From an uncultured Candidatus Saccharibacteria bacterium (lineage in GTDB: Bacteria > Patescibacteriota > Saccharimonadia > Saccharimonadales > Saccharimonadaceae): 64,000 nucleotides of DNA. Positions 46,703 through 53,002 of this stretch are shown one piece after another. The number at the start of each line of letters is the position of its first letter. Within the stretch, counting starts at the first letter, position 1. The stretch spans positions 1,223-65,222 of the forward strand of contig CAZXEG010000001.1 of the NCBI GenBank assembly GCA_964639835.1, given 5' to 3'. The translations under genes were made by a program, and so were the position numbers. The notes below the pieces were generated by a model. The model was given only the letters and a program-made list of their open reading frames with translations. It was not told where the DNA came from and did not search any database.

Positions 46703-47437
46703 TTATAGCACTCTAGCGTCCTTGATGTCAAAATCGCCGACTTTGGTGCGACGGAGAGCGGTGAGATAGGCGCCGGTTTTGAGGGCTTTGCCGATGTCTT
46801 CGGCGAGGGTGCGAATGTAGGTGCCGGAGCTACAATGGACGCGGACTTTGAGCTCGGGGTAGCGGTAGTCTAGGATGTCAATGCTGTAGATTTCGACTTC
46901 GCGTGCGGGGATTTCGAAATCCTGGCCGTTTCGGGCGAGCTTGTAGGCGCGTTGGCCGCCTATTTTGATGGCGGAGAATTTGGGTGGGGTTTGACTGAGT
47001 TTGCCTACGAAGCCAGAGATTACAGATTGCACCGTGCTCAGTCTTGGAGCCGCGTCGAAAACCCCTGTCGCCACAGGGGTTTTCGCGCTTATGCTCGCGC
47101 TGCCGCGCTCCGCGATCTCCTCGACTGAGCATGGTGCAATCTCGTTTTCGATTGAGTATGGCGTAATTTCGCCTTCGGGGTCGCCGGTGGTGGAAACGTA
47201 GCCGAGTTTCAGGGTGGCTTCGTAGACTTTGTCTTTCTTTAAGAATTCGTTGGATTTTTTGGTCATTTTGCCAGAGAGGAGGATGAGAAGGCCGGTGGCG
47301 AAGGGGTCTAACGTACCGGTGTGGCCGACTTTGATTTTGTGGCCAAATTCGTTTTTCAGTTTGGAGCGGATTTTGGCAACGACGCCGAAACTGCTAATGC
47401 CGGCGGGTTTGTCGATGAGGATAATCTGGTCTTCCAT
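46703..47437 (-). CDS. truB: tRNA pseudouridine(55) synthase carrying an in-frame palindromic insertion
   Basis: IDKPAGISS, KVGHTGTLDPFATGLL, PPKFSAIK, CSSGTYIRTLAED. Confidence 0.95.
   Translation of the reverse strand: MEDQIILIDKPAGISSFGVVAKIRSKLKNEFGHKIKVGHTGTLDPFATGLLILLSGKMTKKSNEFLKKDKVYEATLKLGYVSTTGDPEGEITPYSIENEIAPCSVEEIAERGSASISAKTPVATGVFDAAPRLSTVQSVISGFVGKLSQTPPKFSAIKIGGQRAYKLARNGQDFEIPAREVEIYSIDILDYRYPELKVRVHCSSGTYIRTLAEDIGKALKTGAYLTALRRTKVGDFDIKDARVL
47024..47142. mobile_element. Palindromic element family B, copy inside truB
   Basis: 20-bp outer inverted repeat (1 mismatch), 13-bp inner hairpin 47056-47085, 29-nt core 47084-47112 shared with the lepA copy. Confidence 0.75.
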
Positions 47438-47478: not shown

Positions 47479-47745
47479 ATGATAACAAAAGAGAATAAAG
47501 AGAAAGCTATTGCCAAGGTGGCTCGGAATAAGAGCGACGTTGGTTCTCCTGAAGTTCAAGTGGCTATTCTGACGGCTCGCATCAAAGAGGTGACGGAGCA
47601 CGTGAAGAATAATAAACATGACTTTATGGCTAAAAGAGGTCTAATCCAGATGGTAGGGAAGCGGAAGAAACTGCTGAAGTACTTGGAAAAGACAGATTTT
47701 GAGCTATATAAGAAAACGGTAGCTAAATTGGGCCTTAGGAAATAG
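47479..47745 (+). CDS. rpsO: 30S ribosomal protein S15
   Basis: DVGSPEVQVAILTARI, HVKNNKHD..RGLIQMVGKRKKLLKYL. Confidence 0.97.
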   Translation: MITKENKEKAIAKVARNKSDVGSPEVQVAILTARIKEVTEHVKNNKHDFMAKRGLIQMVGKRKKLLKYLEKTDFELYKKTVAKLGLRK

Positions 47746-47851
47746 ATTTCGGCAAGATACTGTGTCAGCAGTTCCGGTACTCAGTCGGCGCACAATAAGT
47801 GCGCCTTCTTCCGTTCCTCACTGCTTCCTTGTCTCTTGCTCGAAATCTATT
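47741..47851. repeat. Multi-stem element overlapping the rpsO stop
   Basis: AATAGATTTCGGCAAGA / TCTTGCTCGAAATCTATT outer stem, inner GGCGCAC-aataa-GTGCGCC, GCAG/CTGC stem. Confidence 0.6.
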
Positions 47852-47859
47852 CCCTGAGA

Positions 47860-47885
47860 AAAACCCGCTCGAGAGAGCGGGTTTT
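47860..47885. terminator. Bidirectional terminator
   Basis: aaaacccgctc-gaga-gagcgggtttt. Confidence 0.75.
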
Positions 47886-47898
47886 AAGGTGCTTAAAT

Positions 47899-48567
47899 TT
47901 AAATGGATGCTTCTTCGTTGATGTTGGCGACTAGTTCGGTGGTTTCCGAATAGTTGCGGAGTTCGATTGAAACTCTGTCGAACTCTTCGAGGATGCCGGC
48001 GATCTTTTTGAAGTAACCCTCGACGCGAGGGTCGGGGTTGTCGTTTTTGTATCTGATGTCGTGCTCGATGCTTGCCCAGAGGTTCATGGATTTTGAACGA
48101 ATCTGGATTTCGACGGGCACGAGTTTACTACCGGTAGAAGTATAGATTTCTACCTGGCAACCGAAATGGAGACTGCTGTAGCCGTTGGGCTTGGGCTGGT
48201 CTACATAATTCTTTCTCCGGACGATGTTGATGCCCGGAATGTGCTCGATCAAGTTCGCGACAATGTTGATCTCGTCACGGTATTTGGTGACGATTCGGAT
48301 GCCGGCGATGTCGCAGACGTTTTGCCTGATTGACTCGATGGTCTGCGGAAAGTCCTTCTTGCGGCACTTTTTAATGGTGCTTTCGAAGGTTTTGATCCGG
48401 CTCTCGATACGGTCGAACGGGTTTTTCCCACTTGAACGCGAGAGTGATCTACGCATGTTTTCGATGCGAACCAGCGTAATGTTTAAGGCTGATTCACATT
48501 CGGATGCGTAGTCGTCGTAATCGTCGATTAACGAGTCATTGTCGGGATCGAAGGTTAACTCATCCAT
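47899..48567 (-). CDS. Small alarmone synthetase (RelP/RelQ-like, RelA_SpoT domain)
   Basis: SRIKTFES..K, DIAGIRIV, PKPNGYSSLH, VEIQIRS..LWASIEH; start at MDELT after GGGG RBS. Confidence 0.88.
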   Translation of the reverse strand: MDELTFDPDNDSLIDDYDDYASECESALNITLVRIENMRRSLSRSSGKNPFDRIESRIKTFESTIKKCRKKDFPQTIESIRQNVCDIAGIRIVTKYRDEINIVANLIEHIPGINIVRRKNYVDQPKPNGYSSLHFGCQVEIYTSTGSKLVPVEIQIRSKSMNLWASIEHDIRYKNDNPDPRVEGYFKKIAGILEEFDRVSIELRNYSETTELVANINEEASI

Positions 48568-51064: not shown

Positions 51065-53002
51065 ATGGATAAGATACGGAATTTTTGCATAATTGCGCAT
51101 ATTGATCATGGCAAATCCACCATTGCAGATAGGATGATGGAATTGACCGGGACGGTGTCGAAGCGAGAGATGAAGGAGCAGTTGCTCGATTCGATGGAGC
51201 TTGAGCGGGAGAAGGGGATTACGATTAAGCTGGCGCCGGTGACGATGGAGTGGAAGGGGTATACGCTGAACTTGATTGATACGCCGGGGCATGTGGACTT
51301 TTCGTATGAGGTGTCGCGTTCTTTGGCGGCGGTGGAGATTGCCGTCCTGGTAGTGGATGCAACGCAAGGGATACAGGCACAGACGCTCGCGAATGTGTAT
51401 CTGGCGCTCGAGCAGGACCTTAAGATTATTCCAGTGATCAATAAAGTGGATTTGCCGGCGGCGGATGTGCCGGGGGTGGCGGCGCAGATTGTGAATTTGC
51501 TGGGGTGCTCCAGAGATGAGATTATTGAGGTGTCTGGGAAAACTGGGTATAATGTGGATAAAATATTGGATGCTGTGGTGGCTGAGCCAGACTTAGTTGC
51601 GGGGTCGCGTCGCTCGCGCCCGTCGACTGAAGTCGTCCGCCAGTCGTCGCCTCGAAACAACGAACGAGTTCGTTGTTCGCTCGGCTCCTCCGGCGGTCTG
51701 CCACGGGGCTCGCGCGCTAATCCTCGCGCTGCCGCGCTCCGGAATACCCCGCAACTAAGCCTGGCTCAGACGCCTACCAGGGCGCTAATATTTGATTCGT
51801 ATTTCGATGATTACCGAGGGGTGGTGTTGTATGTGAGGGTGTTTGAGGGGGAGATTGCGAAAAATTCGGAGATTTTGATGATGGCGGCGGGGAAGAAGGG
51901 GTTAGCGCTCGAGGTGGGGGTGTTGACGCCGAAGATGAGCCCGAGGGAGAAGTTGTCGGCGGGGGAGATTGGGTACATCGTGACGAATCTCAAGACGACA
52001 CGAGAGGCAAAAGTAGGTGATACCGTTACAATTTGGAATACCCAAGTGGACTCTGCATTGGAGCCTTTGCCTGGGTATAAGGATGTATTGCCGTTTGTGT
52101 ATGCAGGGTTTTTCCCGGTGTCGAATGAGCAGTATAAGGAGTTGAAAGAAGCGGTGGAGAAACTGGCGCTGTCGGACTCGGCGCTGAGGTATGAGCCGGA
52201 GAATTCGCCGGTTCTAGGCTTTGGGCTTAGGATTGGGTTTTTGGGGCTGCTTCACATGGATATCATTCGGGAGAGGCTGGAGCGGGAGTTCGGGCTGGAC
52301 TTGATTGTGACAAATCCATCGACGAATTACGAGGTGATACTTTCTGATGGAGAGAGGCTGGAGATAAAATCGGCGGCGGATTTGCCGGACATTTCGAAAG
52401 TGGCGGAGATTCGGGAACCGTGGGTGAAGGGTGAAATTATCGTGCCACGGGAGATGATTGGCGGGGTTTTGAACCTGATTAATGAGAAGCGAGGGCATCA
52501 GACGAGCTTGTCATATATTGAAGAGCGGGCGGTGATTGATTTTGAGGCGCCGATGGCGAATCTTCTGACGGATTTTTATGATCAACTGAAGTCGGTGACG
52601 AGCGGGTATGCGTCGTTTAATTATGAGCTTTCGGGGTACCGGGCGGAGGATTTGGTGCGAGTAGACTTTTTGGTGGGTGGACATAAACTTGATGCACTGT
52701 CAATAATGTGCCACAGGTCGGAGGCGGATAAGATTGGGCGAGAGACGGTGAAAAAGCTGAAAGAGGTGATCCCGCGGCAAAACTATGAGGTGGCACTTCA
52801 GGCGGCGATTGGGGCGCGGATTATTGCGCGGGAGACGATCGGGGCATACCGAAAAGACGTGACGGTGAAAATCCATACGGGCGACCGCGACCGGAAGGCG
52901 AAGTTGCTAGAAAAGCAGAAGCGGGGTAAGGCGCGGATGAAGCGGTTTGGAAAAATTGATATTCCTTCGGAAGCGTTTACCGTAATGCTAAAGCGAGATT
53001 AG
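51065..53002 (+). CDS. lepA: Elongation factor 4 carrying an in-frame palindromic insertion
   Basis: IAHIDHGKST, RGITIK, DTPGHVDF, NKVD, GFLGLLHM, KLLEKQKRGK. Confidence 0.97.
   Translation: MDKIRNFCIIAHIDHGKSTIADRMMELTGTVSKREMKEQLLDSMELEREKGITIKLAPVTMEWKGYTLNLIDTPGHVDFSYEVSRSLAAVEIAVLVVDATQGIQAQTLANVYLALEQDLKIIPVINKVDLPAADVPGVAAQIVNLLGCSRDEIIEVSGKTGYNVDKILDAVVAEPDLVAGSRRSRPSTEVVRQSSPRNNERVRCSLGSSGGLPRGSRANPRAAALRNTPQLSLAQTPTRALIFDSYFDDYRGVVLYVRVFEGEIAKNSEILMMAAGKKGLALEVGVLTPKMSPREKLSAGEIGYIVTNLKTTREAKVGDTVTIWNTQVDSALEPLPGYKDVLPFVYAGFFPVSNEQYKELKEAVEKLALSDSALRYEPENSPVLGFGLRIGFLGLLHMDIIRERLEREFGLDLIVTNPSTNYEVILSDGERLEIKSAADLPDISKVAEIREPWVKGEIIVPREMIGGVLNLINEKRGHQTSLSYIEERAVIDFEAPMANLLTDFYDQLKSVTSGYASFNYELSGYRAEDLVRVDFLVGGHKLDALSIMCHRSEADKIGRETVKKLKEVIPRQNYEVALQAAIGARIIARETIGAYRKDVTVKIHTGDRDRKAKLLEKQKRGKARMKRFGKIDIPSEAFTVMLKRD
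51582..51769. mobile_element. Palindromic element family B, copy inside lepA
   Basis: 24-bp outer inverted repeat (1 mismatch), inner hairpin 51656-51677, core 51713-51741 matching the truB copy at 27/29. Confidence 0.78.

Follow-up and report, generated by a model that had tools for sequence, protein, structure and literature searches.

The window, a stretch of 64,000 nucleotides of Saccharibacteria DNA, carries a lepA (EF4) gene that is interrupted, yet not broken, by a palindrome: the reading frame runs without a stop through a GC-rich (66%) segment at 51582-51769 that is inserted in frame, as the earlier note had claimed. This segment is bounded by inverted arms (51577-51605 and 51746-51774; 29 nt, 90% complementarity), the central 24 nt of which have one mismatch, and it holds internal hairpins (51621-51649 and 51656-51677). 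Folded as RNA, it reached −97.2 kcal mol−1 (z=−6.2), and none of 200 shuffled sequences was equally stable; folded as DNA, the z scores were −6.3 for the + strand and −6.9 for the − strand. A related insert is found in truB of the same window (Table 1).

Table 1. Coordinates of the two inserts and their host genes in the window.
Feature	Position	Strand	Description
lepA (EF4) host ORF	51065..53002	+	645 aa; matches PDB 2ywe/3cb4 (E ~1e-180) in two blocks, residues 3-173 and 233-643
Left arm CTGAGCCAGACTTAGTTGCGGGG	51582..51604	+	encodes (A)EPDLVAG; ends in GGGG, by analogy with gatA the target motif; inverted repeat
Core, 5′ part TCGCGTCGCTCGCGCCCGTCG	51605..51625	+	5′ half of hairpin P3 to its loop; from copy alignment, consensus structure and covariation
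Optional 75-nt module in P3 loop (long form)	51626..51700	+	holds a perfect 10-bp hairpin (51656-51677); missing from short-form copies
Core, 3′ part CCACGGGG..GCGCTAATCCTCGCGCTGCCGCGCTCCGGAATA	51701..51746	+	3′ half of P3 plus hairpin P2; best conserved block of the family
Right arm CCCCGCAACTAAGCCTGGCTCAG	51747..51769	+	left arm inverted, one A.C mismatch; encodes PQLSLAQ
truB copy	47024..47142	+	arms 47024-47049 and 47117-47142; core 47050-47116; opposite to the gene (truB ORF 46703-47437, minus strand)

In LepA, the insert replaces the linker between the G domain and domain II and makes the protein longer by ~52 residues. Between LDAVV and TRALIFDS there are 65 residues, the count first given, and the normal linker is short, as had been stated, with 15 residues in other genera of the order. 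The position of the insert was taken from a PDB sequence alignment, in which Aquifex LepA (2ywe) has 7 residues where 59 stand here; the AlphaFold model, built on an alignment of 30 sequences, had a mean pLDDT of 44 and was useless for locating it. Close relatives carry short, unrelated linkers, so the objection that all of them might share a conserved long linker fails. The predicted tryptic peptide region of the insert reads ...SSPRNNER/VRCSLGSSGGLPR....

The lepA and truB inserts do share a core, as proposed, of 29 nt at 93% identity (nhmmer E=1e-11 for the whole truB copy), and the P3 stem of truB differs from that of lepA (AAAACCCCTG..CAGGGGTTTT). Across the 745-kb genome, nhmmer found 13 copies at E<1e-4; exact matches to a 23-base block of the core numbered at least 98 in GTDB species-representative genomes and at least 120 in metagenomes. 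These numbers rule out chance for the lepA/truB match, and the objection of a lone pair or a misassembly fails with them. As copies in public collections were gathered by this exact 23-base pattern, the conservation of that block is partly ascertainment. Among the matches listed for the GTDB representatives, all were in Saccharibacteria/Nanosyncoccus except one (L085), a chance match. In gut Saccharibacteria (Ca. Nanosyncoccus) such small, GC-rich, mobile DNA hairpins are common, and the lepA insert is one of them; no earlier description for Saccharibacteria or CPR bacteria was found in the literature, in line with what the note had surmised.

What the copies have in common is only a core of 65-67 nt, or 140 nt with the optional 75-nt module. 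This module recurs in C15, where 90 nt align at 92%, and in three other copies (L035, L063 and L110), while the P3 loops of L056, L089 and L113 are filled by different modules. The arms, ~23 nt each, are unlike in every copy, even between copies with identical cores (C13 and C3). The 24-nt bounding repeat is therefore not the element's own terminal repeat: it is copy-specific, one arm being host sequence and the other its inverted copy. Relative to empty orthologues, the filled genes are longer by a net 90-114 nt, about as much as a core and a single arm together. Copies are found directly 3′ of a target motif, for which 97 copies gave the logo Y Y Y S G G G.

The origin of the arms was visible at gatA, the one site where a clean filled/empty pair was recovered. 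The filled allele is present in G000, L139, L140 and L142 and the empty one in L141 and L145, and the two genes are 98.8% identical with identical flanks. The samples with these alleles are ERZ28019060 and ERZ28655079 on one side and ERZ28018901 and ERZ28019072 on the other. The empty allele reads ..GCAGAAAAAGCTGTTTCGGGGCC|TTACACC..., with the left arm, TTTCGGGG included, already there; the filled allele has an additional 90 nt made up of the core and of CCCCGAAACAGCATTTTTCTGTG(CC), which repeats the 23-25 nt upstream in inverted orientation. The new sequence beside the breakpoint is thus the reverse complement of the flank, as expected of fold-back or template-switch synthesis, and this explains why the arms differ in every copy: the left arm pre-exists in the host and the second is copied from it. 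At this single clean empty site, a 2-3 nt ambiguity of the junction (CC/GCC) was all that might mark a direct target-site duplication. Species differ in whether their gatA loop carries a copy, so an outgroup does not polarise the event; the polymorphism probably reflects an insertion, the alternative being that the empty allele arose by precise excision between the GCC repeats. In the strain-level contigs fetched, no presence/absence polymorphism was found at leuS, valS, tatD, the iscS-like gene, mnmA or the beta-lactamase-like gene.

In truB, whose insert is carried by most relatives, the arm encoding RLSTVQS falls in a native TruB helix (alignment to PDB 1sgv, from residue 135) and adjoins the same core end as the pre-existing arm of gatA. 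For lepA, analogy with gatA suggests that the left arm is host target sequence predating the insertion: its EP..VAG also occurs in the LepA alleles P0003, P0005 and L016 and is similar to the empty-type linker ETEPELF (P0007). Under this reading, and again by comparison with the gatA pair, the inserted DNA in lepA would be 51605-51769 (165 nt, 55 codons); the predicted empty lepA allele was absent from the metagenome scan. Protein-level scoring with the core plus either arm removed, against empty G000 orthologues, favoured neither arm as the ancestral one in two rounds (12 versus 15 across species, relative to core orientation), since these loops change too quickly from one species to the next.

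A core that inserts alone, with a stem that grows later by quasi-palindrome template-switch 'correction' overwriting or extending the neighbouring host sequence, is an unlikely origin of these arms. It would fit several LepA alleles that exceed the 15-residue linker by just 25-27 residues, about the size of a core, a ligase site at which both outer stem halves resemble host residues, and a genome with 280 inverted repeats of at least 11 bp versus ~23 expected. However, arms are present in all of the ~110 copies, their length is narrowly spread (short-form totals are mostly 114-125 nt), and in gatA the allele filled at so little divergence already has the full-length inverted copy, its 90 nt having been added and not written over host sequence.

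To judge from their surroundings, most copies are genic: 82 of 99 (~83%) are inside ORFs, where 42 share the orientation of the gene and 40 oppose it, and the remaining copies are just 3′ of genes. The host proteins include LepA, TruB, GatA, LeuRS, ValRS, AlaRS, an IscS-like protein, TatD and an FtsJ-like methyltransferase, with the inserts in surface loops or linkers. The element is asymmetric between strands. Arm mismatches on the + strand are A.C in 87 cases versus G.T in 31 (P=2.5e-7), irrespective of gene orientation, and the − strand folds more stably in 97 of 99 copies. The covariation score (0.447 versus 0.143 in shuffles) was reached by none of 500 shuffles, with compensatory changes in both P2 and P3. 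The mismatch spectrum is not A-specific, and adenine mutagenesis between the arms of the kind seen in DGRs was rejected on that account.

Strand-biased pairing and covariation are not expected of inert junk, so a host function is conceivable. The folded single strand, DNA or RNA, might serve the cell as a protein-binding, replication, repair or uptake signal or as mRNA structure, its spread being due to selection; the retention of the TruB copy across species at 70-77% protein identity would agree with this, as would the better pairing of the − strand in either gene orientation and the compensatory changes. We regard it as quite improbable nonetheless. The copies, ~13 per genome, occupy unrelated places without positional logic relative to genes (see the near-equal orientations above), they are strain-polymorphic and decaying or deleted, no Rfam family was matched at E≤1 (introns and ribozymes included), and a mobilising enzyme that recognises the fold would equally account for the conserved structure.

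Several observations show turnover of the copies. In a 97-99% identical strain, the lepA and ftsJ-like alleles are without the core and with short palindromes, core-deleted remnants are present at C9:20876 and L164, and in the LepA, GatA and TatD loops the copies differ in orientation or form between species. Pre-existing hairpins as the targets of insertion were considered and rejected: solo genic hairpins are few and look like core-deleted remnants, and the gatA empty site has no hairpin.

With a single exception, the genic copies keep the reading frame and contain no stop. Host frame use was 37/31/7/5/2/0 (chi-square P ~1e-18), with two of the six frames accounting for 68 of the 82 copies, and this two-frame dominance points, on sequence grounds, to translation of the insert. 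A +1 nt bulge in the copied arm was found in 36 of 81 genic versus 4 of 16 intergenic copies; by a rough estimate this genic excess is not significant, and the bulge was dropped as a frame-restoring feature.

The frame bias bears directly on whether LepA might be made without the insert, which would then act like an intron in the RNA, as a translational bypass element or like an intein. Removal of the segment in any of these ways is very improbable. A highly stable hairpin within a coding region, and the insertions in rRNA genes for which CPR bacteria are known, speak for it; against it, copies occur in both orientations relative to genes, the in-frame, stop-free condition and two-frame dominance would be irrelevant were the segment removed, and the Rfam search gave no intron or ribozyme. 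The insert is also far too short for an intein and has no intein-like residues, and an unsystematic inspection of the sequence revealed no stop codon or pair of take-off and landing codons. An assembler creating the palindrome or its absence is scarcely credible: contigs do break at repeats (C41 and C20 end in copies) and one contig is a chimera joining an aminopeptidase copy to a lepA copy (L134), but the identical lepA allele is found in two independent assemblies (L131 and L132), the gatA empty allele was recovered from two samples with different assemblers and a linked SNP, and frames are kept throughout.

Searches for a mobiliser returned no candidate within their scope. Querying all ORFs and six frames of the 94%-complete genome with a single sequence, that of the Y1 HUH transposase RayT of E. 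coli (phmmer and tblastn), gave nothing below E=0.25, a search of the same genome with one reverse transcriptase motif gave no match, and neither a multi-copy transposase gene nor a multi-copy small ORF was found. A phage carrier was also considered and rejected, the single IMG/VR match (L138) being a chance one without the rest of the core.

Taken with the above, the insert is probably a small, non-autonomous, structure-forming mobile element of Ca. Nanosyncoccus, RPE/REP-like and selfish, with a stem templated on its target. The suggestion of a selfish family in surface linkers, already made in the note, is supported by copies that are dispersed, in frame and strain-polymorphic. The transposed unit would be the GC-rich core alone, 65-67 nt or, with the 75-nt module in the main hairpin loop, ~140 nt, and it would enter directly 3′ of a motif that is rich in pyrimidines and ends in GGG(G) (YYYSGGG). 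The product would also gain an inverted copy of the ~23 nt of host sequence directly upstream, which would leave the core capping a hairpin of ~115 nt (~190 nt in the long form) with a host-derived stem. By the most likely route, a new strand ending in CCCC would snap back onto the GGGG of the target, prime fold-back or template-switch synthesis along the upstream flank and be rejoined via a microhomology of 2-3 nt. Of the insertions into genes, only those that keep the frame, contain no stop and lie in a tolerant surface loop would survive, and a translated insert would add ~30 residues (~55 in the long form) rich in Gly, Pro, Ser, Ala and Arg. Later imprecise deletions that leave short palindromic remnants are proposed to account for the hypervariability of the loops.

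The analogy with Rickettsia palindromic elements (RPEs), reportedly described by Ogata et al. in 2000, stands in part: both are dispersed palindromic repeats of ~100-150 bp that lie in frame in genes, yet RPEs are, as far as is known, conserved over their whole length, ends included, whereas the ends here are not conserved between copies. Each consists of short palindromes that interrupt housekeeping genes in frame, in a host-dependent bacterium with a reduced genome, and that are apparently translated into surface peptides, and to our knowledge a dedicated transposase is known for neither. The Nanosyncoccus element differs in that only the central 65-67 nt are shared, the stem is the inverted local target and the host belongs to another phylum. 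The genes with in-frame RPEs include truB and tRNA synthetases (PMC3733652). Unlike classical MITEs, the element has copy-specific terminal repeats, and its genome has no multi-copy transposase gene as a parent IS.

CGTC REPs are GC-rich hairpin units with a CGTC tag beside the stem, a CCA-like tail and no dedicated transposase; REP units measure 20-40 nt and usually lie outside genes, although some are intragenic, and some REP dimers lie within longer palindromes, the outer palindromes around dimers having a consensus (PMC3733652). Compared with that description only, the Nanosyncoccus core has GCGTC before P3 and CGTCGCCACGG in the P3 loop, which might correspond to the GTAG or CGTC tag at one end of a REP. 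It differs from REPs and REPINs by a unit of 65-67 nt with two hairpins, site-unique arms, a low copy number and no RAYT homologue found. With IS200/IS605 it shares insertion 3′ of a short motif, apparently without classical direct duplication, one-strand hairpins and strand asymmetry; however, IS200/IS605 ends are conserved and the flank is not known to be copied inverted, and TnpA was not found here (RayT query only).

Short template-switch mutations that create hairpins were reportedly treated by Monttinen and Loytynoja in 2022. Fold-back (snap-back) priming and short template switches create hairpins (PMC10622511, PMC7954356). The order of flank, spacer and inverted copy of the flank is the same in the Nanosyncoccus product, but known events are sporadic and their spacer is local, whereas here the spacer is a conserved, dispersed and target-specific element, which points to a fold-back process coupled to a mobile sequence. 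The mobile GC clusters, or double-hairpin elements, of fungal mitochondria are likewise GC-rich hairpins in AT-richer small genomes, some of them within coding regions and in frame, and no enzyme is known to mobilise them. They are organellar and unrelated in sequence, and we know of none flanked by inverted target copies.

We tentatively propose, at somewhat less than even confidence, a kind of bacterial element that has not been described, in which a ~65-nt core inserted after a GGG-ending motif uses the target as template for its own terminal inverted repeat by snap-back synthesis on the upstream flank, perhaps without a dedicated transposase and by replicative template switching, and in which cycles of insertion and imprecise loss remodel surface loops of essential CPR proteins. 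A host-templated stem is unexplained by standard cut-and-paste, copy-paste or peel-and-paste schemes, and the gatA empty/filled pair provides a concrete substrate and product for biochemistry. For metagenomics of Saccharibacteria, the element would explain contig breaks and chimeras at repeats as well as hypervariable loops in phylogenetic marker proteins, and its copies provide a natural record of which loops in conserved proteins tolerate insertions. Even the 0.7-Mb genomes of epibiotic CPR bacteria appear to carry active or recently active selfish DNA, which would write peptides of 30-55 residues into essential proteins such as EF4, TruB, GatA and aminoacyl-tRNA synthetases.

The palindromic segment of lepA, noticed earlier from the DNA sequence alone, was found in the window as described, with internal hairpins and with arms that reach 29 nt at 90% complementarity (Table). 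Its G+C content is 66% versus 50.7% for the genome, and its fold, as RNA (z = -6.2) or as DNA of either strand, is far more stable than that of shuffled sequences. The claimed in-frame position was borne out by the open reading frame (ORF). Host LepA aligns with solved LepA structures in two blocks (residues 3-173 and 233-643), thus 59 residues stand in place of the 7 of Aquifex LepA at the junction of the G domain and domain II; orthologues from other genera of the same order carry a 15-residue linker at this site, in line with the claimed enlargement. The AlphaFold model was too poor for use.

Table. Location of the palindromic element and of related features.
Feature	Location	Remarks
lepA	window 51065-53002	645 aa
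Palindromic segment in lepA	window 51582-51769	
Full arms of this segment	window 51577-51605 / 51746-51774	
Predicted lepA insert	window 51605-51769	165 nt, 55 codons
Module in lepA copy	window 51626-51700	75 nt; also in the copy on contig C15
truB copy	window 47024-47142	
Region between rpsO and next gene	window 47736-47977	
Diverged core relatives	C20:7123-7223; C11:20148-20254; C9:22435-22550; C13:3865-4060	own long site-specific arms
Core-less hairpin, ArgRS	C9:20876	
Unrelated palindrome, variant-strain lepA	L129:1335-1380	39 nt

The genome to which the window belongs (G000; 745 kb, 53 contigs) was found to harbour 13 copies at E < 1e-4, plus weaker diverged ones, and the truB copy, whose kinship with the lepA segment had been proposed, is among the 13. 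Further copies, as expected for a repeat family, were present in G000, species-representative genomes and metagenomes alike: an exact 23-base core pattern, searched against public collections, occurs in at least 98 stretches of the representative genomes and at least 120 metagenomic contigs. Among the matches listed for the representative genomes, all are from Ca. Nanosyncoccus or other Saccharibacteria metagenome-assembled genomes, mostly of ruminant gut, with a chance hit (L085) as sole exception. A viral carrier was rejected, the sole viral hit being a chance match, and an Rfam search of the element matched no family. Diverged relatives of the core (..CGCTCGCGCCCGTCGTTACGGGGCTCGCG..) are found on four G000 contigs (Table), and ValRS holds two copies, one standard and one diverged. 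Contigs C41 and C20 terminate in or beside element copies. Contig L134 (ENA ERZ28019060 k141_262018) starts with the left flank, arm and core 5′ half of the aminopeptidase-N copy and continues into the module, core 3′ half and right arm of the lepA copy, a junction through the shared core that is either an assembly chimera or a recombinant.

Alignment of the copies revealed that their centre alone is common. The arms outside the GGGG/CCCC base (~20-25 nt) are different in every copy; for example, the copies on C13 and C3 have identical cores yet unlike arms. On the better-folding strand, the consensus consists of a base stem, a small hairpin P2 (CGGAGCGCGGCAGCGCGAG) and a long hairpin P3, with 91.2% of cells paired (73.6% in shuffles) and a covariation score of 0.447 (0.143 for shuffles) that was reached by 0 of 500 shuffles. 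The closing pair of P2 alternates between U-A (26 copies) and C-G (18), and six positions of the P3 stem covary (e.g., C-G versus G-C). Hairpins of the short form, which has no extra module, are mostly 114-125 nt in total length, and the P3 loop can house modules, namely the one shared by the lepA and C15 copies (the long form) and different ones at the same spot in other copies.

The origin of the arms was revealed by contigs of near-identical strains, retrieved via exact neighbour proteins, which gave one clear case of presence versus absence at the site of the gatA copy. Identity between the filled and the empty gene is 98.8%, the flanks show no difference over 60 nt or more on either side, and the empty allele was present in two samples from different assemblers. 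The empty allele reads ..GGGCGCAGAAAAAGCTGTTTCGGGGCC|TTACACC.., and the filled allele has the identical left part, 90 nt and then TTACACC. These 90 nt consist of the core GCGTCC..CTCCGGAATG followed by CCCCGAAACAGCATTTTTCTGTGCC, which, apart from one mismatch and one additional base, repeats the 23-25 nt directly upstream in reverse complement; the junction is ambiguous by 2-3 nt (CC/GCC). As judged from this pair of alleles, therefore, the left arm, TTTCGGGG included, belongs to the host and served as the template from which the inverted right arm was copied. Three other observations agree with this rule: the TruB arm at the same core end encodes RLSTVQS, which overlaps the native helix as placed by alignment with solved TruB structures; the left arm in LepA retains the E-P motif of uninterrupted linkers; and the net insert in other species relative to empty G000 orthologues measures 90-114 nt, about as much as a core and a single arm make up. 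Applied to lepA, the rule gives the predicted insert (Table). The sequence before the core on the target side, Y Y Y (G/C) G G G over 97 copies, points to a target preference. The selfish-repeat interpretation of the earlier note was supported, except that the bounding repeat is host-derived and outside the mobile unit.

The simplest route to a 'target-GGGG / core / CCCC-inverted target' arrangement would take four steps: a 3′ end at ...GGGG would be extended with the core as template; the new 3′ CCCC would fold back onto GGGG, aided by the core's own hairpins; the folded end would be extended ~23 nt along the upstream flank; and microhomology would rejoin it to downstream DNA. These steps may be carried out by an enzyme dedicated to them or by template switching in ordinary replication, and there is a substantial chance that the mechanism is new. 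The gatA pair, with its added 90 nt against a background of 98.8% identity, speaks against the main rival, in which arms grow after insertion through quasi-palindrome correction, and so does the fact that no copy among ~110 is free of arms.

Arm mismatches are biased on the strand as written (87 A.C/C.A versus 31 G.T; P value = 2.5e-7), with the A.C mismatches reading as G.T wobbles on the opposite strand; the bias is independent of gene direction and extends to intergenic copies. In 97 of 99 copies the complementary strand is the stabler, the mean difference being -8 kcal/mol under RNA and -3.3 under DNA parameters. Strand bias and covariation taken together indicate that something recognises the folded form of one single strand, the simplest candidate being a mobilising or replication enzyme that acts on single-stranded DNA. 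G000 yielded no RayT-like protein with one RayT query, no reverse transcriptase motif with one motif and no multi-copy transposase.

Every copy in G000 is genic and in frame. Among the 99 analysable copies of other genomes, 82 are within ORFs of at least 150 aa (42 along the gene and 40 against it), 16 are directly downstream of genes, and one, inside a helicase gene, has a stop codon after it. The host reading frames are very unequally represented (37, 31, 7, 5, 2 and 0; P value ~1e-18), and the two favoured ones encode peptides rich in Gly, Pro, Ser, Ala and Arg (..GPRPAGPSPRAAGANPRAAALRNAP.. and ..RSAAARGLAPAARGDGPAGRGP..). The two orientations, the strict frame preservation and this frame bias argue for translation of the element with selection acting on its peptide, and against an intron, bypass segment or intein.

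Rickettsia palindromic elements (RPEs) and intragenic REPs are likewise small in-frame palindromic repeats of housekeeping genes, truB included (PMC3733652), and the GCGTC/CGTCG motifs are reminiscent of REPs with a CGTC tag, another group without a known dedicated transposase (PMC3733652). The RPE analogy drawn earlier holds for the in-frame housekeeping palindromes but not for the ends, whose conservation is expected of RPEs and MITEs and is not seen here; nor was the RAYT expected of REPs found in G000 with one RayT query. Target specificity and strand bias resemble IS200/IS605, unlike which the element bears an inverted copy of its flank. In agreement with the earlier note, which knew of no description, a literature search found no paper on such elements in Saccharibacteria; the one naming Nanosyncoccus mentions no palindromes, transposons or mobile elements.

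G000 harbours other repeats. Perfect inverted repeats of at least 11 bp within 200 nt number 280 (21-25 in Markov shuffles). Among them are a terminator-like family with 41 members (TGGACTTTCTTT..AAAGAAAGTCCA and AAAGTCAGGACATGTGCCTGACTTT), 9 copies of an intergenic repeat of ~170 nt that starts with CAATTCTGAGAGC, and 4 copies of a repeat of ~105 nt whose limits are marked by TACTACGCCACGG. A second family of ~12 full copies, outside the window on C4, C9, C10, C11, C15, C24, C26, C38 and C48, has the layout GGGTCCTG-[covarying stem]-CCTCCCCCA(C/T)(G/T)TCGCT..GGGGGTCCCCCT-[stem']-GTCACCC, with outer pairs of just 4-6 nt, and likewise occurs in either orientation inside long ORFs; in other species a lepA-type core is surrounded by the GGGTCCTG...CCACCC frame of this family (L032, L049, L064, L094, L113 and L122). 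The region next to rpsO (Table) matches the Rfam Leu_leader on both strands below threshold (24.9 and 21.9 bits; gathering score 50) and is probably just palindromic and terminator-like. On strain contigs L154 and L176, small ORFs (131-137 aa) with CdiA_C toxin-domain matches adjoin mnmA and leuS.

Turnover of the element is evident between strains. In one strain (locus L129, with 97-99% identity at the nucleotide level), LepA (P0002) departs from that of the window only in the linker, where an unrelated palindrome, GGTGGGAACGGGATC..GATCCGTTCCCACC, replaces the 197-nt block of the window, with divergence locally raised at its right flank. The FtsJ-like gene of this strain is without the 177-nt long-form block and has a short palindrome, GGCTTCGAGC-CCA-GCTCAAAGCC, instead. 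Such short palindromes are unique and located exactly at the full-element sites of G000 (L129 and L149, ENA ERZ28654653); they may be what is left of other insertions, or alleles that have recombined. Hairpins with similar arms but no core occupy the full-copy sites of other species in ArgRS (Table) and ValRS (L164), and copies in the LepA, GatA and TatD loops differ by species in orientation, form or decay state. The TruB copy, in contrast, is old and widely shared; the TruB homologue P0156 (278 aa) has a 22-residue tandem duplication (KLDKEYVATLKLGYTSTTGDPE, twice) immediately upstream of the element site. The turnover among strains and species has the pattern of a selfish element under birth and death, by which tolerant loops are remodelled.
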